Part shown: positions 4,477 through 64,000 of the stretch, piece by piece
Position numbering within the stretch: position 1 is the stretch's first letter
Layout of the letters: each line of letters begins with the position of its first letter
NCBI GenBank assembly: GCA_963841735.1
Contig: CAWJDT010000005.1
Coordinates: 190,944 to 254,943, forward strand
Reading direction: 5' to 3'
Source: an uncultured Actinomycetes bacterium
GTDB lineage: Bacteria > Actinomycetota > Thermoleophilia > RBG-16-64-13
Length of the DNA: 64,000 bases
Position numbers and translations under genes: made by a program
The notes under the pieces: model-generated
Database searches by the model: none
What the model saw: only the letters and a program-made list of their open reading frames with translations
What the model was told of the DNA's origin: nothing

Positions 4477-5949
4477 TTACCGGCGTCTATTTGCACGTGG
4501 CCGCCGCGTCCCGTCCACACCGTCGGGCTCCCCTTTCGCCAACGGCGGCAGCAAGACGGTGAAGGTGCTCCCCTCCCCCTGCCGACTTACAACTTCAAGC
4601 GATCCTCCGTGCGCGACCACAATATCGCGGGCAATGGCAAGCCCCAGGCCCGAGCTCTCCTCGTCCCCCGAGAGCAGTCCTCTCCCCCGGTAGAACGGTT
4701 CGAAGATGTGGGGCAGGTCGTCCGCGGCGATGCCCGCGCCGGTATCGACCACATCGACGCAAATGGAGTCGGCCTGCGCCCGCGAGCAGCCTCGAGCTAG
4801 AACCCGGATGCGGCCCGACGGCGGGGTGAATCTTATGGCGTTGGCCAATAGATTAGACAGGACTCGAGCCAGGTCTTCGGCGAATCCGCTGACGTAGATG
4901 CCCGGCGGCACTTCGGTCTCAAGCTCGACCCCCTTTTCTTGGGCGAGCGGTTCCATATGCTGAACGGTGACTCCCAGTAGGTCGCTGAGGTCGACGGTCT
5001 CTGGCTCGTCGCTTCTGGCCCGACCGGCCCGGGCGACCACCAGAAGGTTTGTGCTAAGGCGAATCAGTCGGTCCACTTGACCCTCCAGATCGCGCAGAGC
5101 CTCTTCGTACTCTGCCGGAGTCCTGCGTCTCGAGAGTGTGACTCCGATGCCCCCCTTTATGGCCGTGAGCGGAGTGCGCAGCTCATGGGAGGCATCCGAC
5201 GTGAAGCGCCGTTCGCGCATAAACGCCTGCTCCACTCTGTCGAGCATCCGATCGAAGGCCGCCGCCAGCCTACCGATCTCGTCGCCCGGACCCCGATAGC
5301 GTATGCGCCGGCCGAAGTCGCCCGCGCGGATCGAGTCGGCTACCTGCGAGATGGTGACCAACGGACGAAGCGTCCGTCCGGTAAGAACATAGGCGGCCAG
5401 AGCGGCCAGTACGAGAGCGATGGGCAAAACCAGATACAGCTGTGTACGTAGAGTCTGCAGAAGACTTTCGGTAGGCGTCAGCGGTCTGGCCACCTGGATC
5501 CAACCGCGCGTCTGCCCGTCGGCGCCCGGGACCGCTTCTGTCAGGACCCTCCAGTTCTCGCCCGATGCGTTCACGGTCAGATATCCCGGCGCGGGAGGCG
5601 TGGGCAGTCCTGCGATGGCCTGCCCGGCGCCATCGGACTGCTCACCGTCGGCCCTAAGCACCAGGAGTGCAAAGCCGGCCTCCATATCGGCGTGCGAGAA
5701 CGTCGCTCCCTCGCCGCGAAGAACGAGTCGGCCATCCTCTTCCTCAAGCGACAGCAGGGCCTGAGAAGCGGCAGCCCGCAGACTGGAATCGACCTCCTGC
5801 AAAAGCCGGTGCTCAGTCTGAAAGTAGACATAAGTGCCCACCCCGAGCAGACTCATGCCTACCAGGATGACAAAAGATGCGACCACTCTCTGACGCAGCG
5901 TGCCGCGCAGTCGCCTCCGCGGGTCAGCCTGCGCCCGAACCATCGTCAT
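4477..5949 (-). CDS. two-component sensor histidine kinase (HisKA + HATPase_c)
   Basis: H-box SHELRTPLTAIKGG; N, G1 and G2 boxes (DTGAGIAADDLPHIFEPFYRG...GLGLAIARDIV); N-terminal TM and sensor region. Overlaps the upstream response regulator by 26 nt. Confidence 0.85.
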   Translation of the reverse strand: MTMVRAQADPRRRLRGTLRQRVVASFVILVGMSLLGVGTYVYFQTEHRLLQEVDSSLRAAASQALLSLEEEDGRLVLRGEGATFSHADMEAGFALLVLRADGEQSDGAGQAIAGLPTPPAPGYLTVNASGENWRVLTEAVPGADGQTRGWIQVARPLTPTESLLQTLRTQLYLVLPIALVLAALAAYVLTGRTLRPLVTISQVADSIRAGDFGRRIRYRGPGDEIGRLAAAFDRMLDRVEQAFMRERRFTSDASHELRTPLTAIKGGIGVTLSRRRTPAEYEEALRDLEGQVDRLIRLSTNLLVVARAGRARSDEPETVDLSDLLGVTVQHMEPLAQEKGVELETEVPPGIYVSGFAEDLARVLSNLLANAIRFTPPSGRIRVLARGCSRAQADSICVDVVDTGAGIAADDLPHIFEPFYRGRGLLSGDEESSGLGLAIARDIVVAHGGSLEVVSRQGEGSTFTVLLPPLAKGEPDGVDGTRRPRANRRR

Positions 5950-6613
5950 CTTCCAGCACGAACCCAGTGCCCCGAAGTGTGCGGATTACCGAGGCGCCCG
6001 GGCCGTGGCCGAGTTTCCGCCTTAGATAGCCGACGTAGACGGCGACGACGTTCGACTCGTTGTAGAAGTCGAATCCCCAGACCCGTTCCGCGATCTGAGT
6101 GCGGGTGAGCACCTCGCCAGGGTGGTGCATCATGTACTCCAAAAGGGCAAACTCCCGGCGGCTCAGCGCAACAGGCCGGTCGCCCACGCGGACCTCACGA
6201 CGGAGCACATCCATCTCTATTGAGCCCACGCGCAGCATAGGTTGAGCATCCGGCTGCGGACGCCGCAGCAAAGCGCGTACCCTCGCGACCAGCTCCGGGA
6301 AGGCAAAGGGCTTGACCAGATAGTCGTCCGCTCCCGAGTCCAGACCGCGTACGCGATCCTCGACGCCGTCGAGAGCCGTCAGCAGCAGAACGGGGCAGGT
6401 GATGCCCGCTGCGCGGGCCTGGACGAGCAGATCCAGCCCACTGATGTCGGGCAAAAGGACATCAAGGATAAGAAGATCGTGGACGCCGGTCAGGGCCTTT
6501 TCAAGGCCGCGTGCACCGTTGCGCTCCCAATCGATCTCATAGCCGGCTTCGACAAGACCTTGGCGAATGAATCTACCGATACCGGCGTCGTCTTCCACCA
6601 ACAATAGCCGCAA
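5924..6613 (-). CDS. OmpR-family response regulator (receiver + winged-helix)
   Basis: LLLVEDDAGIGRFI...LILDVLLPDISGLDL...DDYLVKPFAFPELVARV, followed by a winged-helix C-terminus. Probable TTG start at 6613, 6 nt after AAGGAGG; the listed ORF extends to 6655. Confidence 0.85.
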   Translation of the reverse strand: MRLLLVEDDAGIGRFIRQGLVEAGYEIDWERNGARGLEKALTGVHDLLILDVLLPDISGLDLLVQARAAGITCPVLLLTALDGVEDRVRGLDSGADDYLVKPFAFPELVARVRALLRRPQPDAQPMLRVGSIEMDVLRREVRVGDRPVALSRREFALLEYMMHHPGEVLTRTQIAERVWGFDFYNESNVVAVYVGYLRRKLGHGPGASVIRTLRGTGFVLEDDDGSGAG

Positions 6614-6778
6614 TGCAAGCCTCCTTGCTGGGGCCAGCCGGAGTATACACCCCACAAAGCGGCGCCCGGAGAATGCTTCGGCCGGCCCGCGCCTTGCGCG
6701 GACCGGCCGAATCGGAGGGGGTCTATGTTCTGAAGCACCGTGTCCGGCGCGGGCGCCGCCGAGCCGAGCGCCGTCCGG

Positions 6779-7120
6779 CTACCCGATGGCCACGTGTCCT
6801 GTCTCGCCGGTGCTGATGCGCACGCACTCCTGCAGGTCCAAGACGAAGATCTTGCCGTCGCCTATGCTGCCGGTGCGGGCACCCTTGTTGATGGCGTCCA
6901 TGGCCGGCGCCAGGAATTCGTCGTTCACCGCTATCTCGATTTTCACCTTGCGCAGCAGGCCGCCCGGTTCCACATGGCTCCGGTAGACCTCGGCCACACC
7001 CTTCTGCCTGCCGCGTCCCATGACATCCGACACCGTCATCAGGTTGATCTCGGCCTCGGTGAGCGCTTCCACCACCTCGTCCAGGCGATCGGGCTGGATT
7101 ATGGCGATTATGTATTTCAC
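6779..7120 (-). CDS. glnK: nitrogen regulatory protein P-II
   Basis: 113 aa. MKYIIAIIQPDRLDEVVEAL...GRGRQKG...Y in the T-loop region; canonical P-II. Immediately downstream of the ammonium transporter (amt-glnK arrangement). Confidence 0.9.
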   Translation of the reverse strand: MKYIIAIIQPDRLDEVVEALTEAEINLMTVSDVMGRGRQKGVAEVYRSHVEPGGLLRKVKIEIAVNDEFLAPAMDAINKGARTGSIGDGKIFVLDLQECVRISTGETGHVAIG

Positions 7121-52531: not shown

Positions 52532-54682
52532 CTAGACACGCAATAGCCCTTCTCCGACAAGGAACTCCGCCCCATTTCCCATTCCGTAGTCCAGAAGCTC
52601 GTCGCTGAAGGAGCCCTTGAGAGCGCAGAAGTACACCTGCGCGCCGATCCTCCTGGCCATCTCGACAATCCGCGTGGCTTGGTCGAGTTTGAGTGAATCG
52701 GCCGTCCGTTTACATTCTGCGACGAGTCGTTCTGGGCCGAAGCCGAAAAAGACGTCAAAGTCCACGGTTGGTGCGCCGGGCACCGTGACATCCAAGCCTG
52801 GCCAATAGGCCATTTGAAGAGCACTCCGGTCACGGGGCGTGAAACGGCGAACTGCCGCCAAGACTGGGAGCAAGTCGTTGTCCATCATTGTTTCAGCCAA
52901 ACCATCCAGCCTAAGGTAAGACTTGGCTTCTAGTCCGTCCCCTTGAAGCAGCGGCAGGGTGAATTCAGCCCGACAGGCAAGGCAACGCATGACGTCATCA
53001 AGATCAGAAATCGGATAGAACTCCTTTGCCCCGCATTCCTCGCACTGGTAGGTTCTCCCTCGCCTGACTAGACCTGTCGCCAAGAGTCTCTCTAGAAGCG
53101 GCGCGATGTCCGCTCTGGCGAAGCCAATTTGTGACGCGATGTCGTCCAGCGTCTTGGTATTGGGCCGAAGAAGGATCAACTCGTTCTTGACCGTGTCCTG
53201 GATAAACCGGTCAAAGCCTTCAGGCTCCTCGCACTTGGCGTCCTTGAGCGCTTTAGAGATGCTCGCCTCAACCTTGCGCCTGGCGAGAGAGGCGAGATTC
53301 TCGAAGATGGCGATGGCCAGGGTGTTGGTCAACACAGACAAGCCTTCAAGTCCTCCAACTCGGTCAATGACGGCCCGCGCAAACCTTCCTGGGGGAGTAA
53401 TCTCGGCGCTCAAACCTAGGTCCTGCATGTAAGCATTCAGGGCCTCATCCGGGTCTAAGACTCTCAGCTTGAGATCAAAAGAGCGACTCGGAGACTGAGT
53501 GCGAATGCAGAACCTCCCTTGGTAGGCGTAGCCGTTTTGCTGAATCTTGGCTGCAGCTGATCTCGTAACCGGGAAGGGATTCGGCCAGGTCACCTCCAAC
53601 ACGACGCTGTTGCTGTATTTAGCCGCAAAGCCTTTAGGTACCCCGAATCGCATGGTGTTTTCCCCACGCCGCAATGCAGCGAGATCGTCGGCAAACAGAC
53701 CGCGTCTGAGCTGCCCTCCCGGGAGATATCCCGCAAACGCGAATTCGAGCGCGCGCTGCTCGCTTGCTGCCGGTCCTCTAAGCTGTTCAGTCCGAGTTTC
53801 CTCTGGCACCTCAACCATTCCAGCGGCGACTAGCTCCTGTCTGGCGGAATCCCGAATAGAGGCCGCCGCGAATATGCGCACATCCGGCTTCTGGCGAAGC
53901 CGCGACTCCGCGGCAATCCACTTGACCATCTCCGCGACAACCGCCTGCTCCTTGAGAAAGCCGACCGGCATGATAATCAGTTGCTCACGGCTACCCCAGC
54001 TCACCACGCGGGAGCGATAGTTCCAGGCCGTGCACAGGTCATCAAAGCTGTCCGTCTGGACGACGTAGATGAATCTGTCATAAGCGGGAGAGACTTGCTC
54101 ATGTAGGTCGATCAGGCGGACTGATTGCGCGAGCGGCGAGACGCCAGAGGTTTGGCCGTCAAGCAGCGCGAGCTTCGCTGCCAATTCAGTTGGGGCCGCA
54201 CGCAAAGAGAAGGCTTCTTCATACGCTCCTCGATCTCCCGGATTCAGCGAGCCCCAGATGATGGTTTCGACATCTGGCAGAGGATCTTCATTGACGGAGG
54301 GAATAGTGAGCAGGTACTTCGAGGAAGAGTCTCCCGAGAGCCAGAGATTCAGCGGATGAAGATACCAGTCCGTTAGCTTCGGGTGAATCTGCTGGACATT
54401 GATTCGTGGAAACAGCTCTCGGATTGCTGCCGCCGAGAACGCAGAGTGATAGAAGACTGTCTCCACATCGCGAATCGCGGTATAGGCGCCAGTAGCGGGG
54501 TCCATTTCTGGCGTCCCCTCCGAGACCGGAATCACGAGAGCGTTCGCTCCGTTCCAGATTTCCGAGGCATTTCGGGCAACACTGGCTAGGGCCGAGATAT
54601 CTCCTCGCGGAATGACAAACCCCAGTTCGGGTCCCCGGAGGCCATACGAGATTCGCTGCTGTGATAGCTCACCTTGCCCCAT
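52532..54682 (-). CDS. large hypothetical protein (716 aa) with winged-helix-like segment, CxxC...CxxC zinc ribbon and C-terminal PD-(D/E)xK-like nuclease motif; candidate defence gene
   Basis: LDDIASQIGFARADIAPLLERLLATGLVRRG (wHTH-like); YQCEECGAKEF...RCLACRAEF (Zn ribbon); DFDVFFGFGPERLVAECKR (D...ExK). No P-loop. Reduced GC. Confidence 0.5.
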   Translation of the reverse strand: MGQGELSQQRISYGLRGPELGFVIPRGDISALASVARNASEIWNGANALVIPVSEGTPEMDPATGAYTAIRDVETVFYHSAFSAAAIRELFPRINVQQIHPKLTDWYLHPLNLWLSGDSSSKYLLTIPSVNEDPLPDVETIIWGSLNPGDRGAYEEAFSLRAAPTELAAKLALLDGQTSGVSPLAQSVRLIDLHEQVSPAYDRFIYVVQTDSFDDLCTAWNYRSRVVSWGSREQLIIMPVGFLKEQAVVAEMVKWIAAESRLRQKPDVRIFAAASIRDSARQELVAAGMVEVPEETRTEQLRGPAASEQRALEFAFAGYLPGGQLRRGLFADDLAALRRGENTMRFGVPKGFAAKYSNSVVLEVTWPNPFPVTRSAAAKIQQNGYAYQGRFCIRTQSPSRSFDLKLRVLDPDEALNAYMQDLGLSAEITPPGRFARAVIDRVGGLEGLSVLTNTLAIAIFENLASLARRKVEASISKALKDAKCEEPEGFDRFIQDTVKNELILLRPNTKTLDDIASQIGFARADIAPLLERLLATGLVRRGRTYQCEECGAKEFYPISDLDDVMRCLACRAEFTLPLLQGDGLEAKSYLRLDGLAETMMDNDLLPVLAAVRRFTPRDRSALQMAYWPGLDVTVPGAPTVDFDVFFGFGPERLVAECKRTADSLKLDQATRIVEMARRIGAQVYFCALKGSFSDELLDYGMGNGAEFLVGEGLLRV

Positions 54683-54801: not shown

Positions 54802-56004
54802 TCACCGGGAGGCGCGGAATCCAAAGGCTGTGTTGGTGCTGCCTGGCACACTGCCCAAATCAAGGTTAAGCACGCCCGCTTGGCCGCCATCGCTCCAACG
54901 GCCGCCACGCCGAAAACCACGTAATGATGCGTCGCTAACTGAGCTATACAGCTGGCCAACACCTTGGCTAGAGTTCCAAGTGTCTGAACCAGACAAGCCG
55001 ATACTTCTAGGGAGAGGATTTGCCGGCAAGGAGCCCGGCTCTGTCACGGCGGTCCATTGCTTCCAGGCGAAGGCGCCTTCTCCAGTAATGCCCGGCTGGC
55101 CGCCGGTCGTCTGGCCAGCTGTCCATTCCGAGACATTACCTGCAAAGTCCCAGATTACTTCTCCGTTCGTGAGAGTGAGCGTACGGCTCTGGTTGCCGCT
55201 AGCGCTTCCAGTGCCGTAGTAGCCGTTAGAGTCGTTTGAATCGGCTGCCAGGGCGTTTGTCGGATCATTGTCATTGTGTCCCGAGTAGATATAGCCGGAG
55301 CCGACGCTCCCGCCGCTCCAGTTGCTGGCGACGGCCAAGACGTTCTGGGCGACTGTCATCCATTCGGCTTCGGTAATCAGGTGGCAGCCGTCGCAACCGA
55401 CAACATTGGAGCTGTAAGCAGCGGCATTGGTCTGGTTGATGCTGACCCAGGGTGCGCCGGAGGCTTGTGAAACGGGGACGGTGCCTCCGGCGTTCTTGGC
55501 TTCATACTTCATGAGGCAGAAGTCATTGGTGCCGTACGTGCCACTGCCAGGAACCGGTATGAAACCGGAAGGACAGGCCGAGCCAACCGATGAGCCGCTG
55601 CCGGTGGTGGCTATGGCCGGGGCGGTCATGTCGGTAACGGAGTAGCTGGCAGTGCCGTTGGTACTGGTCAAGTGGAAGGTCTTGCCGGCTATCTGGCTGT
55701 AGACCAGCGTGTTGCCCAAGCTGGTCTTCAGGCAGTAGTTGGCATCTACAGTGGGCGCGGTTGGGCAGTTGCTGCCGTCCAGCGACGTGGGGTAGGAACC
55801 ATAGAGCGTGTTGTAGTTCTTGAGCAGGGTTGAGGCATTGGCCAGGTCAGACTGCAGAGAGCTGACCTTGGCCCTATTGGATATACCTGAATAGGAAACG
55901 ATGGTTATGGCGGCCAGGATGCCGATGACGACAATGACAACCAGAAGCTCGACGATGGTGAAAGCAGGACGTCTGGTTGGAAACAGCTTATCTATAATAC
56001 GCAT
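54802..56004 (-). CDS. prepilin-type N-terminal methylation/cleavage motif protein with C-terminal FGE-sulfatase (SUMF1/DUF323)-like domain
   Basis: N-terminus RRPAFTIVELLVVIVVIGILAAI is a class-III signal / pseudopilin helix. C-terminus ...LRGFRRGGRWSDGG...TAFGFRASR resembles the FGE-sulfatase domain end (RGGSW...GFRcar). GC ~50%. Confidence 0.55.
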   Translation of the reverse strand: MRIIDKLFPTRRPAFTIVELLVVIVVIGILAAITIVSYSGISNRAKVSSLQSDLANASTLLKNYNTLYGSYPTSLDGSNCPTAPTVDANYCLKTSLGNTLVYSQIAGKTFHLTSTNGTASYSVTDMTAPAIATTGSGSSVGSACPSGFIPVPGSGTYGTNDFCLMKYEAKNAGGTVPVSQASGAPWVSINQTNAAAYSSNVVGCDGCHLITEAEWMTVAQNVLAVASNWSGGSVGSGYIYSGHNDNDPTNALAADSNDSNGYYGTGSASGNQSRTLTLTNGEVIWDFAGNVSEWTAGQTTGGQPGITGEGAFAWKQWTAVTEPGSLPANPLPRSIGLSGSDTWNSSQGVGQLYSSVSDASLRGFRRGGRWSDGGQAGVLNLDLGSVPGSTNTAFGFRASR

Positions 56005-56122: not shown

Positions 56123-57370
56123 ATGACAGACAATCAAAACAACCCTCCCTACCAGTCGGCCCTCGATATTCCATCGATTGCGAAAATGGCCGACGAGCTG
56201 CAGACTGCCGGAAGGCTGACGCGTGTGTTCGGGCGAAAGCATCGCGCGGAGATCTTGAAGATCGAGGCCCAGCTGCATCGGCTCGTTGGGATCGTCGATC
56301 GCTTCTATGCCCTGTTGGGGCCTCGTCACTGGATCTTTCACGACCGGTTGAATGTCGAACAAATCGCGGACCTACTCGACCTGCCGGTGGACGAGGCCGA
56401 GCGCAGACTAATTGAGCTGTACATGGAGCCCGAATCTCTCCGATTCGCGATTCTCGGACTGAACCATTTCCCAGCCATGCGATTACGCATGCATCTGTTG
56501 GAACGAGCCGAGAAGGATTACCACGAGAAGCGCTACTACTCGACCGTCCTCGTGCTGCTGGCCGTCATGGATGGATTCGTGAACGATTTCGAGAACCAGC
56601 ATCGAGGTCTGCACACGCGGTCCGAGGAGGAAATGAGCGCATGGGATAGTGTCGTCGGGCATCACCTCGGCCTAACGAATGCTCACAGGACCTTCACGAA
56701 GAGCACATCAAAGACGAGCGATGAAGAGGTCTTCGATCTCTATCGGAATGGCATCGTCCACGGCACTATCGTGAACTTCGACAATGACGTCGTGGCAACC
56801 AAGGCGTGGAACCGGCTTTTTGCCGTCTGTGACTGGGCAACTAGCGAGGAACGCCGCCGAGTCGAGCCCGAAGCAGAGCCGACTTGGCGAGAGCTATTTG
56901 CACAGATGGCCGAGAACCAGAAAGCCAGAAAAGCGCTAGATGAGTGGAAGCCGTCGGTGCTGGAGGCTGGAGCGCCCGGACTGGAATCCAACGAGGTCTT
57001 TGTTAGGGCGAATGAGTACCTCTCCCTCTGGAAGCGGGGCAACTACGGCCGCATGGCTCCGTTCCTGTCCAAGCTCGTCGCGGAAGACTCGGACAAAGCC
57101 ACTGCCGGGATGATTCGCACGGAGTACAGCACCTTCCCGCTGACGGCGTTCACCATCACTGCAGTCAGGCATGACGTGCCGGCAATCTGTGAGGTCGAAG
57201 CGGAGCTGGAGTTCGGTCCTGAGCGCAAGAGTGCGCGCATGCAGTGGAACCGAGAGGGCGACGACTGGGTGCCGGTATCACCAAACCAGCCAGGTGAGTG
57301 GCGACTGGTGCGTTGGGGTCCTCTCGCCATGATGCAGCCCGAACCAGCTGGCGAGGACGAGACGAGCTAG
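56123..57370 (+). CDS. hypothetical protein (415 aa), the only plus-strand gene in the island
   Basis: Clean ORF with moderate GC and no recognisable motifs. Its stop overlaps the convergent OLD-family gene by 4 nt. Confidence 0.45.
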   Translation: MTDNQNNPPYQSALDIPSIAKMADELQTAGRLTRVFGRKHRAEILKIEAQLHRLVGIVDRFYALLGPRHWIFHDRLNVEQIADLLDLPVDEAERRLIELYMEPESLRFAILGLNHFPAMRLRMHLLERAEKDYHEKRYYSTVLVLLAVMDGFVNDFENQHRGLHTRSEEEMSAWDSVVGHHLGLTNAHRTFTKSTSKTSDEEVFDLYRNGIVHGTIVNFDNDVVATKAWNRLFAVCDWATSEERRRVEPEAEPTWRELFAQMAENQKARKALDEWKPSVLEAGAPGLESNEVFVRANEYLSLWKRGNYGRMAPFLSKLVAEDSDKATAGMIRTEYSTFPLTAFTITAVRHDVPAICEVEAELEFGPERKSARMQWNREGDDWVPVSPNQPGEWRLVRWGPLAMMQPEPAGEDETS

Positions 57371-59256
57371 TCCAATACTCTGACGTGCTCCAGCGTGATT
57401 GACAGACAGTCGGGTATCTTGCCACCGGCAAGCAAGCAGGCATCGTGGTATGTCCAAGCATCCTTGCCAGCGAATCCAAGCCCTTGTGATACGAGTTCGT
57501 CCCTAGCCGCAACCCACTCCGGCCAGGAATCGTGAACTAGCGCCTCCAAGGTCGGCTCATTGAAGAATAGACGATCGGCCACCTTCCCTGAGGGCCAGTC
57601 GATTTCGCTGCAGCCGAAGAACTTCAGCAGTTTGCGGTTCCAGGACTTGGTGTTTTCTATACTCGACTCCAGGTCTTTTTCGCGCTTGGAGTCAGCTGCG
57701 GCCTTTGCTTCAGCCAGCTTATCCTCAAGTTGTCGATCGTTGTCCACGACAACTACTGCGGGTACTCCCAGCCGCTCCAAGATTACGAATGGCAGGAGCA
57801 CGCCCGTCTTACCTCCGCATTCTGCGACGCACACTCCGTTGCTGACCAAGCTCTGCACTAGCTCCGAAGCACCATTGAACATGCCTCTGTCCGTCGAGCC
57901 CTCTACAAGAAGAACCCTATCAGCGAACAGCGCCTCGGCTAGAGAGCCCATGCACACGCCATCGAGCTGGCGCTTGACGCTTGGTTCATCCACGTAGCAA
58001 TCTAGGCGCGCTAGCACCTTGTCCACGGAAGATCCCGAAACTGACACCGCGCCTTGACTGCCGCCGCCTGAACGGCTGACCCGCCTGATCTGATGAAAGG
58101 CCCGGGGTTCTATGAAATATGGGCTATGAGTTGCGTATGCGACTTGCACGCCCTGGTCAGGGTTCTTCGCTAGATCACGCAGGACCGACGCAAAGTTGCG
58201 AGCCTGCAGGGGATGCTGAAAGAGTTCGGGCTCCTCAATTGCGAGGCAGATCGTGCCTTGCTCTCCCTTGCCCTTTCCGCGCTCAGCCAGCAGCTGAAGA
58301 GCTGAGATCAACAGGGCGCGCTGGAAACCGTGTCCCTGTCTTTCCACGGTTGTCTCAGTGTCGTCGTCCATGATCTTGACTTTGAACTGCGCCTTTTGCT
58401 GCGGAATTGCTAGGTCCTGCGCGCTGACCTGAACTTCGCGCCCTGAAGTGAAGGCGGACACGGCCGAGGTCATCCTCTCGGAAAGCTCCTTGAGCTGCTC
58501 TCCAAAATGCTTACCGTGGATGTCTGCCTGCTCAGCAGCCACCTTAGCCATCAACTCGGCAAGGTCGGCGTCCGCGCCAGACCGATCGACCGCTTGTTCG
58601 AGGACGCGGCCGATTATGGCATTTCGGTTGTCTTGTGCTTGTTCGCTCGCGCGCAGGTCGGCGGTTACAAAGACGTAGTCGAAAAGACCCGTCATTACAA
58701 ATTGGCCGTTGAAACCGAACAGGTGAGTGGTCGATGAGATATCAACATCTTCTAGCTTATCGGGGTTGTCTGCTTCCCACTGATCCAGCGCGGTCAGCCG
58801 CCCGGCATCGTTCCGAACCGATGGAAGCCCGAGGTCGGGGCGAGCAACTCTTAACTCGTCATATCGCTCCCCACGTTCGGTTGCGTTAATCCCCTCACGA
58901 ACACTCGCGAACTCCGGCCGGGCTCTGCCCTTTCCATAGAGCTTATCTTTGCCGTCTTGCCAATGCTTCCAGAGGGTTACAGCGTCTCTCCCTGGTACGG
59001 CATAGCGACCTAGTGCTTCCCGATCCTTGTCTGTCAACCCAGCGAACTCGACTGACACTTCAATTTGCTTTTCTTCCGCTCCCGAGAAGACATCGTCCTC
59101 GGTAATAGTGCCGCCATTGAAGAACCAATCAAGAGCTCGCAGAATGGTAGATTTCCCGACTCCATTCGGCCCGATGAAAGTCGTTACATCGTCGAAGTCG
59201 ACAGCGACGTCGTCTAGGCAGCGGAAACCGACGATGTGAACCTTCTTGATTCGCAT
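57367..59256 (-). CDS. OLD-family ATP-dependent endonuclease (N-terminal ABC-type ATPase + C-terminal Toprim), class-1 single-gene type
   Basis: MRIKKVHIVGFRCLDDVAVDFDDVTTFIGPNGVGKSTILRALDWFFNG is the characteristic AAA_15/OLD N-terminus with Walker A. C-terminal Toprim with VLLVEGSTD and VVVVDNDRQ. Confidence 0.8.
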   Translation of the reverse strand: MRIKKVHIVGFRCLDDVAVDFDDVTTFIGPNGVGKSTILRALDWFFNGGTITEDDVFSGAEEKQIEVSVEFAGLTDKDREALGRYAVPGRDAVTLWKHWQDGKDKLYGKGRARPEFASVREGINATERGERYDELRVARPDLGLPSVRNDAGRLTALDQWEADNPDKLEDVDISSTTHLFGFNGQFVMTGLFDYVFVTADLRASEQAQDNRNAIIGRVLEQAVDRSGADADLAELMAKVAAEQADIHGKHFGEQLKELSERMTSAVSAFTSGREVQVSAQDLAIPQQKAQFKVKIMDDDTETTVERQGHGFQRALLISALQLLAERGKGKGEQGTICLAIEEPELFQHPLQARNFASVLRDLAKNPDQGVQVAYATHSPYFIEPRAFHQIRRVSRSGGGSQGAVSVSGSSVDKVLARLDCYVDEPSVKRQLDGVCMGSLAEALFADRVLLVEGSTDRGMFNGASELVQSLVSNGVCVAECGGKTGVLLPFVILERLGVPAVVVVDNDRQLEDKLAEAKAAADSKREKDLESSIENTKSWNRKLLKFFGCSEIDWPSGKVADRLFFNEPTLEALVHDSWPEWVAARDELVSQGLGFAGKDAWTYHDACLLAGGKIPDCLSITLEHVRVLD

Positions 59257-59421
59257 ACATGTCTCCCTTCAGCTACCCGTGTTCTGCTCCCGTTGGCCGT
59301 TCGGCTTAGCCAAGTGCTACGTTTCGTCATCATCTGCGACCCATTATATGAGCACGAACGTTTGTTCGCAATCGCATGGACTCGGTGCGGGCTCCAATGC
59401 GTGCCGACAGCTTCAGGTTGT

Positions 59422-60303
59422 TCACCGTTTTGGAAACAGCCCGCCAAAGAGGAGTCCGAGATACAAGAACGCCATGTCCTCATCGTCGTCCCTGTACGCG
59501 TCAAGAGCCTTCCTGGCCCTGCCCGCCGCCGTCTTGAGCTTCGACAGAGCCTCTGAATGCTTGGCTTCACTTGAACAGGGGTGGATTCTTCCGCAGGCAC
59601 CCTTGGGGTCGTTCATGGCAGCGAGTTCATGGCCTTCGAGACTCTCAAGGATCAGGCACAGGTCAAAGACGTGGATATAGAGAGACTGCTTCGCTACGTG
59701 CTGCGCAGCGCGCATCTCCAGATAGAACGAGGAAATCGGGACGTTTAAGTAGTACTTCCACGCTTTAAGCAGTCGCGCGAGACCCTTTGCATCGCCCTTG
59801 TGCGGCTTTTCATTACATTCATTCACGTAGGCAAGGTGCTCATAAGGCGCGGAATCAATCCAGCCGCTTCCAACGCTGGGGCCTGGGATGTCGTACACCA
59901 ACTGACCGGGGCCACCTCTACCCGTGAGGAAGGCGGGGATGACTTCCCACGTCTCAGCTCCTCCAGCGAATCTCACAGCTACCGCCGGTCGGCGAATCGT
60001 GACCTCGGTCGAGGGGAATCTCTTCGAAAGCGCATCCTTCACCCACTCAAGAGCTGTGTACGACGATTCCGGCTTCGAGTCCTTCAGCCGCACCACGGCA
60101 TCGACATCGCTATAGAACCGAATGCCTGTTCCGTGCGAGAAGGAGCCAGTCTCGAAGAAGTTGGCGACGCTTAGATTGTCTTCAAGAGCGGCCTTGACCG
60201 ATGCACGGTGGGATGCGGCAGCGCTGCGCTCCGTTGCCGTAGGAGTCAGCCCGGATAGGAAGTCTTCAAAAGCCTGGCTCACAGTCCGCGCCATACGATT
60301 CAC
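59422..60303 (-). CDS. CD-NTase / SMODS-like nucleotidyltransferase (copy A)
   Basis: Motifs TGSFSHGTGIRFYSDVDAVV (GS...[DE]h[DE] pol-beta-type NTase core) and later WIDSAPYEH; N-terminal helix MARTVSQAFEDFLSGL typical of SMODS/CD-NTase proteins. ~290 aa. Confidence 0.6.
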   Translation of the reverse strand: MNRMARTVSQAFEDFLSGLTPTATERSAAASHRASVKAALEDNLSVANFFETGSFSHGTGIRFYSDVDAVVRLKDSKPESSYTALEWVKDALSKRFPSTEVTIRRPAVAVRFAGGAETWEVIPAFLTGRGGPGQLVYDIPGPSVGSGWIDSAPYEHLAYVNECNEKPHKGDAKGLARLLKAWKYYLNVPISSFYLEMRAAQHVAKQSLYIHVFDLCLILESLEGHELAAMNDPKGACGRIHPCSSEAKHSEALSKLKTAAGRARKALDAYRDDDEDMAFLYLGLLFGGLFPKR

Positions 60304-61182
60304 CTATCCATATGCTGGAAAATCATCGCCAAGTATGATTCCCCATAGCCTTATGGCTTCTTCATGATCTCCGTCTCGCTGCGCCTCGATTGCATCTGAG
60401 GCCCGGCCGTGAGTTGAAGAAAAAGACTGCTTCAGGTCTGATTCTTGGAGGGGAGTGAGGCTCGCCCCAAGATCGCCGCCATAGCCGTCCGGGTCCTGAA
60501 CGTGGATGTAGCCCCCGGCCCATTCGAAGAACTTCTGAAGTCCTATCGCATGGTTACTACTCATGGTTGAAAACGCAGCCCCGACCATTGCCTCAAGGTG
60601 CCATGAGCCGAGCCGCTTGCTGTGTTCGTTGTTCCATCGCTTAAGAATTCGCACCCGTCGTCTGAACTGGCCAGACAAGGCCGTATCGCGGTCCTGAGCC
60701 CACTGCTCCTGCTTTGGCGGGTCCGTCTTTATCCAGGAACCGTCACCAGCCGGCAGGAAATAGCCTCCACTATTCACGCCGAAGACCGGCGCGATATCGA
60801 CGTGTAATCCGTCTTTGTAGAAGAGCCTGACTGCTTGGCCTCGTGCTCCAACTTGTTGCACTTCAGTGCGGGCGTCTATCCTGCGTGTAACCCAGTAAAG
60901 GAAGCTTTGAGAGTCGTGCCGGTACTTCTCGAAGACCTGATTCTTGTTAGTAAAGACAGCCAGAACGTCTATGTCATCGAGCGGACGAATCATCGTTCCT
61001 CGTGCCCCGGACCCCATCAACCGACTGGTCTTGAGTGGTACGTCGCAGTCAGCGGGGAATGACTCATCCAGCAGTTCCTTGACCCGAGCCGCTCGACTGA
61101 CCATCGTCACTCGCTGCGCCTCGGTCAAGACGATCGCAGCTGCGAATTCCTTGAAGGCTTGCTCAACCGTCCTGGCCATCGC
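60304..61182 (-). CDS. CD-NTase / SMODS-like nucleotidyltransferase (copy B, paralog)
   Basis: MARTVEQAFKEFAAAI...MGSGARGTMIRPLDDIDVLAVF; same architecture as copy A. Start at MARTV (61182), 20-nt overlap with the upstream 4TM gene. The stop abuts the start of copy A. Confidence 0.6.
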   Translation of the reverse strand, partial: AMARTVEQAFKEFAAAIVLTEAQRVTMVSRAARVKELLDESFPADCDVPLKTSRLMGSGARGTMIRPLDDIDVLAVFTNKNQVFEKYRHDSQSFLYWVTRRIDARTEVQQVGARGQAVRLFYKDGLHVDIAPVFGVNSGGYFLPAGDGSWIKTDPPKQEQWAQDRDTALSGQFRRRVRILKRWNNEHSKRLGSWHLEAMVGAAFSTMSSNHAIGLQKFFEWAGGYIHVQDPDGYGGDLGASLTPLQESDLKQSFSSTHGRASDAIEAQRDGDHEEAIRLWGIILGDDFPAYG

Positions 61183-62068
61183 TTGCCCCCGGCCCGATGT
61201 TTCTCGCCGCATACTGCATGTCTTCTTCGAAAGAAGGAACAAGTGCCTTGTAGAACCATTCTGGAACTAGCGGAGCAATCTTGCGCAGCCGGAATATTCC
61301 GTCCTGCAGCTCCCTCAACGGTTGCACCTCGCCAGGGAGGTGGGAGAGAAGGCTATCAACCTCATCCTCCAACAACTGGCGACTACCAGCAGCCTGAAAA
61401 TGCTCGCGCGCTAGTTCGCAAGCGTCCAGCAACGCTGGCAGCGAGGGCAACGCGATGGTTGTAAGGTAAGCCGCCAGGGTCGCGTTGCCAGTCAAAGCAA
61501 GTGCAACACCGGCTAAGAACCAGAGCACCGCCGCGCCTGCCAGCACCCACGCGTAGGCGTAGTGCTGTCTGCGAGCCCATACTGCATTGGATCTCAGGCA
61601 GATGAGGACCGAATCGGGCCAAGCGTGCGCTGCCTGCGTTGGATACCAATCGCGTACGGAGGCAAAGGGCGCCTCTCCCTTGCTCGCGTTCCGTATCTCC
61701 TCTGCGGGAATTGGCTTGCCAAGGACTGGGTTCCATGGCAACCCGAGGACATCGCAGTCGAACATCTCTTGCGCGAGCGCGCCTTTGATCCGACATCGGT
61801 CACGCCATGGACTAATCAGAACCCGGGAGACGAAGATCCAAACTCCGGCGAGGGCTCCGAGAAGCGGCCCGTAGGTCGGAGCGATAAAGAAGATCAACGG
61901 CGCGACTAGCGCAAGCAAGAGTGCCACTGAACGTCCCGCAAGTTGCATCCGTTTTGCTCGTCCGTAGTAGCAGCCCGCCGCAGTTTGGCGACGGAGGTTA
62001 GCTTCGCTCCTCTGTCTGCATCCGATGTCGGCCATGGTCGGACGACGTTCCACAAAACGATGAGTCAT
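61163..62068 (-). CDS. four-transmembrane-helix protein (S-4TM-like; candidate membrane effector)
   Basis: TM1 SVALLLALVAPLIFFIAP, TM2 GPLLGALAGVWIFVSRVLI, TM3 YAWVLAGAAVLWFLAGVALAL, TM4 TLAAYLTTIALPSLPALL. Its ATG overlaps the methyltransferase TGA (ATGA). Confidence 0.55.
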   Translation of the reverse strand: MTHRFVERRPTMADIGCRQRSEANLRRQTAAGCYYGRAKRMQLAGRSVALLLALVAPLIFFIAPTYGPLLGALAGVWIFVSRVLISPWRDRCRIKGALAQEMFDCDVLGLPWNPVLGKPIPAEEIRNASKGEAPFASVRDWYPTQAAHAWPDSVLICLRSNAVWARRQHYAYAWVLAGAAVLWFLAGVALALTGNATLAAYLTTIALPSLPALLDACELAREHFQAAGSRQLLEDEVDSLLSHLPGEVQPLRELQDGIFRLRKIAPLVPEWFYKALVPSFEEDMQYAARNIGPGASDGQDG

Positions 62069-64000
62069 GCAGTCTTCTTCCGCTCACCGTTTGAGTGCCA
62101 GGCGAAGCCGCTGAGGTCGCGAACGGAACCGATTGTTGTGAGCAGCTGCGCGTTAGCAATGACCCGCTCGTCGTTCAGCGACAGCTTGATTCCGGCTTCG
62201 CTCATCCGCCGTATCTTCGACGCTGCTGAGCCAAGAGCATCCGACCTGGCGGCCGGGCGCGTTCCTTCATCCTTCCGGCAGACGACTATGGCGTCAATCT
62301 GAATGGGGCTCTTCGCCTGCGACTTCGGAGTCGCCCCGGACATCTCGGACTTGACGGGATGAGCATTGACGACGACGAAGCCGGATTCGACCACGGCCCT
62401 CGCTACGGAGTCCCATCCTTCGTCTCGCGAATGATGGTAGGTGAAAACCAGGAGCCCCGAAGGCTTCAAGACACGATGGCACTCGCGAAAGACGGAGGCC
62501 AGCTTATGGCTAAACAATGTCGCTTGCGCGTCTTGGACTTCCCCGGCGGAACGAGTGCTGCCGGATTCCTTGACGAAGCCTCGCGGAGTCAGTTGTTGCC
62601 AGGCATAGAAGAAATCGGCGAGTTCGGAATAGTGCACGTTATCGAAGAAGGGCGGATCGGTCACGACGAGGTCAATACTGCTGGCAGGAAAGCCGGTTTC
62701 GCTGGAATCGCCGCACGAAAGATAGATCGCTCGTCCGCTCCTGTCGCCGTTAAGGGGAGTGTCCATGTGGACTTGTCCAGCAAAGGCCGCCGAACACTGC
62801 ACTGCCTGGCCACTGCTAGAACCAACGATCTCCAAGGGATTGCGCCGGTAACTGATCGCTTTCAGCAGACGACCAGCGAACAAGCCCGAAAAGCTTCCGG
62901 AACTCTTCGAGGTTCCCCATATGTTGGCCTCAATTGGTGTTCGTTCCGGCTTCAAGATGTGATGAGAGAACATATGTCGGACTGCGCCGGTGCCTTCGCC
63001 CTTGTATGAGGCGAACATGTTGTTGAATTCGAGAGCGCCGGAGAACAAGAGCAACAGGGCATCTCTCGATTCGGTGTCTTTCACTTCGGAAATGGCCCGA
63101 TGCAGCTTCGCGAGTCCCAGCAGTTGCCGATCGTTGTGGAAGTCTCGCCAGCGCTTGAACCCGTAACTAATGGCCTGACGGGTATTGTTGCCATCCGCGA
63201 GTTCCAACGAGGGAACGGATAGAGCACCTTGCTCCAATTCTCGCTTCAGCTCGCTGGAGCATTCCTCGTAGCGCGCCAGATCCTGCGCGTTTGCGGCCAA
63301 GTACTCCTTGCGTCCCTCCCGCGTCAGGACGAGCTTGGCATACAAGCGAAACGACGACGGAGCCTCCCCAGATAGCGTGTCAAGCACTCGAAAGTCGTTG
63401 CGGCAAGAAGGGCAAGTGGCCGAGCGACCGTTCACAACGCCAACGTCCTGGTTGAAGTCGTGTCCGCAGCGATCGCAAGTCGCGTCCGGCTGATCGTATC
63501 TGCCCTCAAAGATTTGGTCGCATTTCGGGCAAAGCACTTGGACTTCTGGCTTTCGACGCGGATAGGCGTTCCGCGCAAATACCCAAGAGGAAAAGAGATC
63601 AACAGTGCTTCGACAGGTTGGACAGCCGGCCTGCATCACCCAGAAGTAGTAGAGAACCTCGCACTGTTCGCCCCTGCTGTCTTCCGAGGCGTACATAGCG
63701 CGAAGCTCTTCACCAACAGAGGCTGAGAGCGAATCAAAGGCTCTTCGCAGCTTGATTTCGTCCAGCCCACCCAATGCCACTCGCACTGCCTCAGCCGCCA
63801 CCGGGTTGATGTCGCGACCTACTGCGGTGAGCCCGAGCTTGTGAGCTTCTCCGATTGTAGTTCCAGACCCCATGAAAGGGTCAAAGGCAGTAACGCCTGC
63901 GTAGTCTTGCCTGCGATAGAACTCGCTCCGCAAGTCGCTATCGGCCGGAAGGAGGCAGCCGAGAAGGATTCCCCGGAACACGGAACCGAGCCTTTTCGCC
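62065..64000 (-). CDS. DNA methyltransferase (N6-adenine/N4-cytosine class) with inserted multi-CxxC zinc-ribbon region; 5' end lies beyond the window
   Basis: AdoMet motif I DPFMGSGTTIGEAHKLGLTAVGRDINP; catalytic motif IV DLVVTDPPFFDNV; four CxxC pairs between them (CPTC...CPKC...CDRC...CPSC). No stop upstream before position 64000. Confidence 0.7.
   Translation of the reverse strand, partial: AKRLGSVFRGILLGCLLPADSDLRSEFYRRQDYAGVTAFDPFMGSGTTIGEAHKLGLTAVGRDINPVAAEAVRVALGGLDEIKLRRAFDSLSASVGEELRAMYASEDSRGEQCEVLYYFWVMQAGCPTCRSTVDLFSSWVFARNAYPRRKPEVQVLCPKCDQIFEGRYDQPDATCDRCGHDFNQDVGVVNGRSATCPSCRNDFRVLDTLSGEAPSSFRLYAKLVLTREGRKEYLAANAQDLARYEECSSELKRELEQGALSVPSLELADGNNTRQAISYGFKRWRDFHNDRQLLGLAKLHRAISEVKDTESRDALLLLFSGALEFNNMFASYKGEGTGAVRHMFSHHILKPERTPIEANIWGTSKSSGSFSGLFAGRLLKAISYRRNPLEIVGSSSGQAVQCSAAFAGQVHMDTPLNGDRSGRAIYLSCGDSSETGFPASSIDLVVTDPPFFDNVHYSELADFFYAWQQLTPRGFVKESGSTRSAGEVQDAQATLFSHKLASVFRECHRVLKPSGLLVFTYHHSRDEGWDSVARAVVESGFVVVNAHPVKSEMSGATPKSQAKSPIQIDAIVVCRKDEGTRPAARSDALGSAASKIRRMSEAGIKLSLNDERVIANAQLLTTIGSVRDLSGFAWHSNGERKKTA

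Follow-up and report, generated by a model that had tools for sequence, protein, structure and literature searches.

The locus considered here lies at one end of a 64,000-nucleotide (nt) stretch of DNA (hereafter the window) from an uncultured Actinomycetes bacterium of the thermoleophilian lineage RBG-16-64-13 (assembly GCA_963841735.1, contig CAWJDT010000005.1, positions 190,944 to 254,943), and its core is a three-gene cassette coding for a four-helix membrane protein of the S_4TM family and two nucleotidyltransferases, here termed CycB and CycA. CBASS (antiphage signaling systems based on cyclic oligonucleotides), the nucleotidyltransferases akin to cGAS and DncV (CD-NTases) and the S_4TM effectors are all well known; our concern is the presence of two cyclases beside a single effector. 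Both the open reading frame (ORF) listing and a direct reading of the sequence bear out the four consecutive minus-strand genes of the original prediction, a model-generated reading of the letters alone: a DNA methyltransferase (MTase) gene entering from the window end (62065 to 64000), the S_4TM gene, which is the first of the CBASS cassette (61163 to 62068), cycB (60304 to 61179; 291 amino acids [aa]) and cycA (59422 to 60294; 290 aa). As that prediction had it, the MTase stop codon TGA (62067-62065) sits within an ATGA, at 62065-62068, that also holds the S_4TM ATG (62068-62066). The overlap between the S_4TM gene and cycB, given there as 20 nt, shrinks to 17 nt once cycB is taken from its conserved ATG at 61179 (protein start MARTVEQAF). 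The cycB stop codon TAG (60306-60304) does abut a GTG, which had been read as the start of the second cyclase, but the conserved cycA ATG (protein start MARTVSQAF) lies 9 nt farther on, at 60294.

Both cyclases are recognized by the Pfam SMODS profile (PF18144), whose cut-off of 26.5 bits is clearly exceeded by CycA (57.3 bits, E = 2.8e-15) and CycB (58.6 bits, E = 1.2e-15). They are claimed by different PADLOC cyclase models, CycA by PDLC00776 (E = 4.7e-117) and CycB by PDLC00823 (E = 1.9e-87), and are only about 25% identical to each other. The polymerase-beta-type core and the shared N-terminus, MARTV(E/S)QAF, that had been pointed out in both proteins are indeed present. In CycA, the core takes the form GSFSHGT...SDVDA, with the GS and DVD elements complemented by a third acidic residue, the Glu of WEVIPAF, which is kept throughout the CycA family, including the versions from single-cyclase systems; in CycB, it takes the form GSGARGT...DDIDV, with a DID element and the Asp of HVDIAP as the third acidic position. 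The GS, DxD and third acidic residues are intact in all cyclases of all the dual-cyclase loci that we recovered. AlphaFold2 models of CycA (pLDDT 92.5) and CycB (pLDDT 95.4) were compared with known structures by means of Foldseek; the top match of CycB is PaCdnD 6P82 (TM-score 0.83, E = 1e-19), that of CycA is PaCdnD 6P8U (TM-score 0.79, E = 1e-16), and the best PDB matches of both are without exception CD-NTases, namely, PaCdnD (TM-scores of 0.79 to 0.84) followed by EcCdnC, BfCdnB and EcCdnD. The assignment of both proteins to the SMODS/CD-NTase group, along with the cGAS/DncV-like fold anticipated for each copy, is thus upheld by profile, catalytic residues and fold, and we conclude that CycA and CycB are intact CD-NTases of two different families. 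At 97.6 and 123.2 bits, both fall short of the 200 bits demanded by NF041117, the equivalog that NCBIfam names "CBASS oligonucleotide cyclase"; as judged by these scores, they are related to it without being members. We rejected an identity as antibiotic nucleotidyltransferases or as MNT toxin-antitoxin components, as NTP_transf_2 scores only 19 bits where 21 are required, and every match by profile or fold points to CD-NTases; we also rejected the notion that one of the two is a dead paralog, given the intact catalytic residues and the low ratio of nonsynonymous to synonymous divergence (dN/dS). A separate observation concerns the C-terminus of CycB (60304-60320): in our sample, most members of its family close with ...FP(A/S)YG, the last residue being a glycine, though 2 of 8 aligned CycB copies end otherwise, the consensus having been drawn from a 52-sequence alignment (A3) that includes 12 members of the CycA family. 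This ending is reminiscent of the C-termini that Cap2 conjugates in type II CBASS; no Cap2 is found here.

The membrane protein belongs to the S_4TM family, as had been proposed, with a score of 237.6 bits against the Pfam cut-off of 26.9 (PF18159, E = 2.4e-70) and a match of similar strength to the PADLOC model for the CBASS 4TM effector (PDLC00722, E = 2.9e-70). A Kyte-Doolittle scan recovers two hydrophobic hairpins, at residues ~45-88 and ~170-214, which account for the four transmembrane helices first noted. It further carries the residues invariant in the family (Q19, A30, A38, Q100, F103, D104, Q255 and R262), and on the strength of these matches it is a bona fide S_4TM effector. The protein is 301 aa long if read from the ATG at 62068 and 290 aa long if read from Met12 (62035). 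The latter (MADIG), which is where the homolog in locus L019 begins (homologous loci carry L numbers throughout), may be the actual start, in which case the ATGA overlap with the MTase gene would disappear. Genes for Cap2/Cap3 (E1/E2/JAB) or HORMA/TRIP13 proteins are absent both from the flanking genes of the window and from those of the identical public contig. By composition, the cassette is hence a type I CBASS.

Three unrelated contigs from metagenomes (L017, L032 and L033) have the same gene order, S_4TM-cycB-cycA; in them, the spacer between the two cyclase genes matches that of the window (9 to 11 nt), the cyclases are 66 to 74% identical to the window copies and the S_4TM protein, where complete (L017 and L033), is 59 to 62% identical. 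A second order, cycA'-S_4TM-cycB', is seen in L018 and on plasmid pJ349-116 of Arthrobacter sp. J3.49 (L027), a trio that RefSeq annotates gene by gene; here PDLC00776 once more claims the upstream cyclase, CycA' (E about 1e-110 to 1e-120), which is 45% identical to the window CycA, while the downstream cyclase, CycB', is 47 to 65% identical to the window CycB. In a metagenome-assembled genome (MAG) from Solirubrobacterales (L006; OY969562, 4182-8867), genes for a TRIP13-like AAA protein, a bacHORMA_2 protein, a cyclase of a different family (CycX; PDLC00809) and S_4TM are followed by an added cycA; by its gene content, this is a complete type III CBASS with cycA appended after the effector. 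Two cyclase families thus occur together with S_4TM in six other independent loci, an association of both families with this effector that is far beyond chance, and the idea of a CBASS variant with two cyclases is sustained by the conservation of the layout in several unrelated loci. Counting the window copy, the dual-cyclase cassette is present in 5 of the 7 examined relatives of CycB with at least 63% identity. Searches with CycA yielded eight loci in genome contigs and four in metagenome contigs; a tblastn search of plasmids returned 11 records for S_4TM and 6 for CycB, the only dual one being that of Arthrobacter pJ349-116, and viral contigs scanned with CycB and with S_4TM gave no match. 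Single-cyclase counterparts exist as well: S_4TM-cycB pairs occur in L019-21 and L034-37, cycA is coupled to a gene for an effector of the SLATT_4 family in many Actinomycetota (L001-L015), and in other phyla a lone cyclase gene is placed before that of S_4TM. On the Nostoc plasmid pNLP4 (L029), a "hypothetical protein" of ~534 aa (5210-6943, minus strand) with similarity to CD-NTases (phmmer 73 to 80 bits) is encoded next to a cyclase-S_4TM pair, on the other strand, and may represent another arrangement with a second cyclase. In the case of L017, the cassette sits inside a dense defense island that begins with type I HsdM-HsdS genes, and the region 3' of the cassette (L017:5332-9241) codes for a PD-Lambda-3_B/Hypoth_Ymh protein (E = 5.5e-90) along with an SMC/LmuB-like ATPase.

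The limits of the cassette are sharply drawn by comparison of these loci. Between the window and L017, L032 and L033, nucleotide similarity (blastn) covers the three cassette genes alone and stops at the cycA stop codon, and similarity to L022, which shares the MTase, is confined to that gene and breaks exactly at the MTase stop/S_4TM start. Among the four cassette lineages, synonymous divergence (dS) is saturated while dN is 0.12 to 0.27 for both cyclases, with dN/dS of 0.03 to 0.19 where computable; from the saturated dS and the low dN/dS it follows that both cyclases have long been kept as working proteins. Thus, both are under purifying selection, and the three genes constitute a discrete, recurrent module. 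Within this module, the two cyclase genes behave differently: cycB always overlaps the 3' end of the gene for this S_4TM lineage, whereas the placement of cycA varies, which leads us to take S_4TM-cycB as the resident pair and cycA as the add-on. A recent instance of such an addition is suggested by the cycA of L006, which follows S_4TM and is 93.6% identical in DNA sequence to the cycA that follows SLATT_4 in L005 (L005:8001-8848); the similarity covers the ORF only, with unrelated flanks on both sides, and looks like a recent single-gene cyclase swap. The effector/cyclase overlap is 17 nt in both the S_4TM-cycB pair of the window (61163-61179) and the SLATT_4-cycA pair of L001 (L001:10001-10017); in both, it encodes the MARTV start of the cyclase and a ...DG(Q/K)DG end of the effector, even though the effector families are otherwise unrelated. 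We read this shared junction as a likely common recombination point, and cycA as a mobile add-on cyclase borrowed from the SLATT_4-cycA systems. The neighbor-joining tree of the CycA family is star-like and speaks neither for nor against a single clade of the cassette versions.

The MTase gene upstream of the cassette has a history of its own. Its frame lacks an in-frame stop before base 64000 and runs off the end of the window, which holds the C-terminal 644 of the 704 aa of the full-length protein, as given by an identical public protein (P0241). In the identical public contig, a further gene, taken from the gene call, overlaps the MTase start by 17 nt, so that the MTase gene is not the first of its operon, the position that the original prediction had accorded to it on the truncated sequence. 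The protein combines the N6/N4-type MTase domain (PF01555, E = 1.2e-13) with zinc-ribbon matches and four CxxC pairs. A match to DUF1156 stays below the gathering score (E = 0.017), consistent with a weak DUF1156-like N-terminus, and NCBIfam NF042963, the model for antiphage DUF1156 MTases, is not reached (124.6 bits against a cut-off of 1000). The MTase family is large and well conserved, with versions at ~60% identity in many MAGs, those with a named source coming from Planctomycetota (Thermoguttaceae, Isosphaeraceae and Pirellulales), Bryobacteraceae and Candidatus Acetothermia. Two homologs, from L022 (81% identity) and L023 (60%), are each preceded by a gene for a protein of ~265 aa, which in L022 overlaps the MTase gene by 17 nt, as in the identical public contig, and neither locus has a CBASS downstream of the MTase. 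The ~265-aa partners (L022:2924-3727 and L023:7208-7999) are 65% identical to each other and, while without a match in Pfam, NCBIfam or PADLOC, carry the signature SYPDFR-x10-YE(I/L)KG, which resembles a PD-(D/E)xK motif; the window equivalent lies just past base 64000. Hence, we propose that the partner is probably the restriction endonuclease of a widespread, unnamed two-gene module resembling a restriction-modification (R-M) system.

Conversely, cassettes elsewhere have other upstream neighbors, namely, HsdM-HsdS in L017 and an unrelated 131-aa gene separated by a gap of 174 nt in L033, while further ones stand alone or in different surroundings. MTases of the family found in the window are not present beside the cassettes of L017, L033, L018, L027, L019 and L034, and those of L033, L027, L019 and L034 are not accompanied by an MTase of any kind. 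On this comparative evidence, the MTase is part of a separate R-M-type module, outside the CBASS cassette. Co-transcription of the two is possible, there being no spacer between them and no sigma-70-like site within the 3' end of the MTase gene. As a side observation, three dual-cyclase cassettes adjoin R-M genes that are unrelated to each other (window 62065-62068, L017:2684-2687 and L018:7276-7283), with the genes at the junctions overlapping by as much as 8 nt or lying up to 2 nt apart; those upstream code for the DUF1156-like MTase in the window, a type I HsdM-HsdS in L017 and an Eco57I-type MTase with a PstI-like restriction endonuclease in L018. Such cassettes may be promoterless riders on R-M operons, or their position may reflect the mere abundance of R-M genes in defense islands. 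More generally, the locus cautions that tight stop/start overlaps in defense islands are no proof that the neighbors form one system.

On balance, we favor a reading of the locus as an S_4TM-cycB-cycA type I CBASS, placed flush behind a separate R-M-type module and upstream of an independent gene for an OLD-family nuclease, with the two cyclases as parallel sensors. Each cyclase would sense infection by itself and make a nucleotide second messenger; the single S_4TM protein would recognize the messenger from either cyclase and permeabilize the membrane, thereby aborting the infection. Two sensors feeding one effector would amount to an OR gate, such that two different phage cues, or a phage escaping one sensor, would still trigger the same effector, and the system would gain a wider phage range or become harder to escape, as with the multiple ThsB proteins per ThsA in Thoeris. 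CycA and CycB would probably work side by side on one effector rather than as an obligate pair; in favor of this, each family works alone elsewhere, CycA also combines with a HORMA-regulated cyclase and cycA moves as a single ORF. Several points weigh on the other side. The parallel-sensor model is drawn by analogy; the wiring of CycA to S_4TM is assumed, its usual partner SLATT_4 being a member of a different effector family; and no S_4TM system was found with CycA as its only cyclase, the contig of the one locus with an S_4TM-cycA pair (L016) being cut upstream. Moreover, the layout was sampled in only about ten informative loci, and while we found no CBASS with two CD-NTases and one effector in the literature searched, operons with several cyclases may already be listed by Millman et al. 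2020 or Burroughs et al. 2015.

The repeated pairing of PDLC00776 with PDLC00823, in two gene orders and across deep divergence (45% for CycA' and 47 to 65% for CycB'), with both enzymes kept intact, could alternatively signify an obligate two-enzyme synthase, either a heteromer or a sequential pair in which, for instance, a linear intermediate or primer made by one is extended or cyclized by the other, thus placing an AND gate on S_4TM. We regard this as unlikely, as each family serves as the sole cyclase elsewhere (S_4TM-cycB in L019 and L034; SLATT_4-cycA in L001-L015) and CycA is also joined with the very different HORMA-linked CycX (PDLC00809) in L006, into which it was swapped as a lone ORF. 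The same mobility of cycA as a single ORF, its normal partnership with SLATT_4 and the recombination point offered by the identical 17-nt overlap in S_4TM-cycB (window) and SLATT_4-cycA (L001) would fit a leftover of operon fusion: recombination at the conserved junction of effector and cyclase would have brought in cycA from a SLATT_4-cycA system, and the gene would be expressed without being wired to S_4TM; it might then be redundant, confront anti-CBASS proteins with a decoy or sponge, or serve as a reservoir for the shuffling of cassettes. However, the layout has outlasted saturating synonymous divergence in four cassette lineages, with dN/dS well below 1 and every catalytic residue intact, and it has had at least three origins, each with its own arrangement; a useless gene is not likely to survive under these circumstances, and we consider this explanation improbable.

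The original prediction raised another alternative, namely, that abortive infection is here linked to methylation in a hybrid system, with the translationally coupled MTase as a functional component or regulator of the CBASS operon. The ATGA stop/start overlap, the lack of a spacer between the MTase and S_4TM genes and the lack of a sigma-70-like promoter in the 3' end of the former would fit such a system, as would the cassettes of L017 and L018, which likewise lie flush behind R-M genes and suggest that co-transcription with R-M genes may be common. Against this, the upstream MTases in those loci belong to unrelated families, the MTase family of the window is accompanied by a ~265-aa partner of its own but not by CBASS, no MTase attends the cassette in L033, L027, L019 and L034, homology breaks exactly at the gene boundary and a start at Met12 would remove the overlap altogether. 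Homologous loci thus do not show the arrangement of two cyclases with an MTase that had been envisaged; with the MTase and the cassette failing to co-occur and the homology breaking where it does, we hold the hybrid to be highly improbable.

Parallels with known systems help place this dual-cyclase CBASS. A type I CBASS with an S_4TM effector from Escherichia coli, EcCdnD12-4TM, restricts phages (bioRxiv 10.1101/2023.05.21.541620). The cassette shares with this system, and with the cyclase-S_4TM pairs found on plasmids (L025 and L029), the combination of a CD-NTase with S_4TM and the lack of Cap2/Cap3 and HORMA/TRIP13, and by analogy the expected action would again be abortive infection via membrane damage; it differs in having two cyclase families per effector and in placing the effector gene first, overlapping that of a cyclase. 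The SLATT_4-cycA systems of Mycolicibacterium, Nocardia and Amycolatopsis (L001-L015) have an orthologous CycA (57 to 70% identity) with the same MARTV start and 17-nt effector/cyclase overlap, but a SLATT_4 effector of ~170 to 180 aa and a single cyclase. In terms of structure, the closest solved relatives are PaCdnD and EcCdnC (6P82, 6P8U and 6P80; TM-scores of 0.77 to 0.84), which share the catalytic architecture at only 15 to 25% identity; they come from type III systems controlled by HORMA/TRIP13 proteins, genes for which are not found in the window but are present beside cycX in L006. A different doubling of signal synthases is seen in CBASS-DAC (Liu-DS2), which consists of a CD-NTase, a DisA-like diadenylate cyclase (DAC) and the phospholipase CapV, and in which the added cyclase has been found experimentally to drive immunity (PMC13069673). 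Like our cassette, it is of type I and joins two synthases of nucleotide signals to one effector; in contrast to our cassette, the second enzyme, which has the DAC fold, bears no relation to CD-NTases, and a patatin phospholipase serves as the effector. In Thoeris systems where one thsA is joined by several thsB genes, each TIR protein has been proposed to respond to different phages, a proposal that the authors set out to test with the two TIRs of Bacillus dafuensis (bioRxiv 10.1101/2021.01.06.425286). The logic of several divergent sensors per operon feeding one effector is the same, as an analogy only, for the families (TIR and SIR2-SLOG) are unrelated and the signal, isomers of cADPR, is another one. 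The MTase, for its part, resembles the DUF1156 MTases (PADLOC DUF1156_MTase/HmaB; NF042963) in its N6/N4 core, its weakly similar N-terminus and its partial profile matches, but it is 704 aa long against ~950 aa, and its partner is the ~265-aa protein rather than the combination of a helicase with a DUF499 ATPase seen in L019.

Downstream of cycA, across a spacer of 165 nt, lies the gene for a 629-aa protein of the OLD family (57367 to 59256, minus strand), in which an N-terminal ABC-type ATPase domain (AAA_15, E = 4.5e-43) is linked to a C-terminal TOPRIM nuclease domain (OLD-like_TOPRIM, E = 1.4e-13; PADLOC Old, E = 1.1e-56). The spacer contains a promoter-like site on the minus strand, TTGCGA-17-TATAAT (59343 to 59371), a consensus match only, at 10 of 12 positions; the region has one such site, where its shuffled versions lead one to expect 2.1. 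This site probably delimits the CBASS transcription unit on its downstream side. The OLD gene is not conserved beside the cassettes of L017, L032 and L033 and is an independent neighbor. We considered whether OLD might be a second effector, dedicated to CycA, and rejected this in view of its lack of conservation by the cassette and its own spacer and promoter-like site. Converging on the OLD gene with an overlap of 4 nt is one for a 415-aa protein without a family match (56123-57370, plus strand); beyond it are genes for a 400-aa protein with a prepilin N-methyl signal and a subthreshold FGE-sulfatase-like match (54802-56004, minus strand) and for a 716-aa protein without a significant match (52532-54682, minus strand). 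All three are syntenic in an identical Logan contig and fall within a stretch of lower GC content, which is 0.57 to 0.58 across 52 to 64 kb against 0.60 to 0.70 in most of the remaining window. The low-GC island beside an OLD nuclease that had been reported is accordingly there, with OLD in place and GC lowered, but its GC content is only moderately low. A tRNA-linked integrative island was rejected, there being no tRNA gene in the window. We think it somewhat more probable than the contrary that the whole represents a defense island of lower GC content, in which the R-M module, the type I CBASS with its two cyclases and OLD come together.

Little is understood so far of the ways in which CBASS cyclases sense infection and in which membrane effectors such as S_4TM and SLATT read the signal. 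With two different cyclases to one effector, this natural cassette lends itself to a direct test of whether sensing is split between the enzymes, as with ThsB in Thoeris. The swapping of cycA among SLATT_4, S_4TM and HORMA-type contexts further points to signals and effectors that can be exchanged more freely than the view of one cyclase for one effector would have it. We tentatively suggest, as a possibility that we rate as short of even, that there is a conserved subtype of CBASS in which PDLC00776 and PDLC00823 cyclases converge on one pore-forming S_4TM effector, with PDLC00776 as a mobile plug-in sensor that serves SLATT_4 systems, type I systems with S_4TM and type III systems with HORMA/TRIP13. 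If this is true, CBASS would gain a multisensor, one-effector design like that of Thoeris, and the unrelated effectors SLATT_4 and S_4TM would read the same nucleotide signal.

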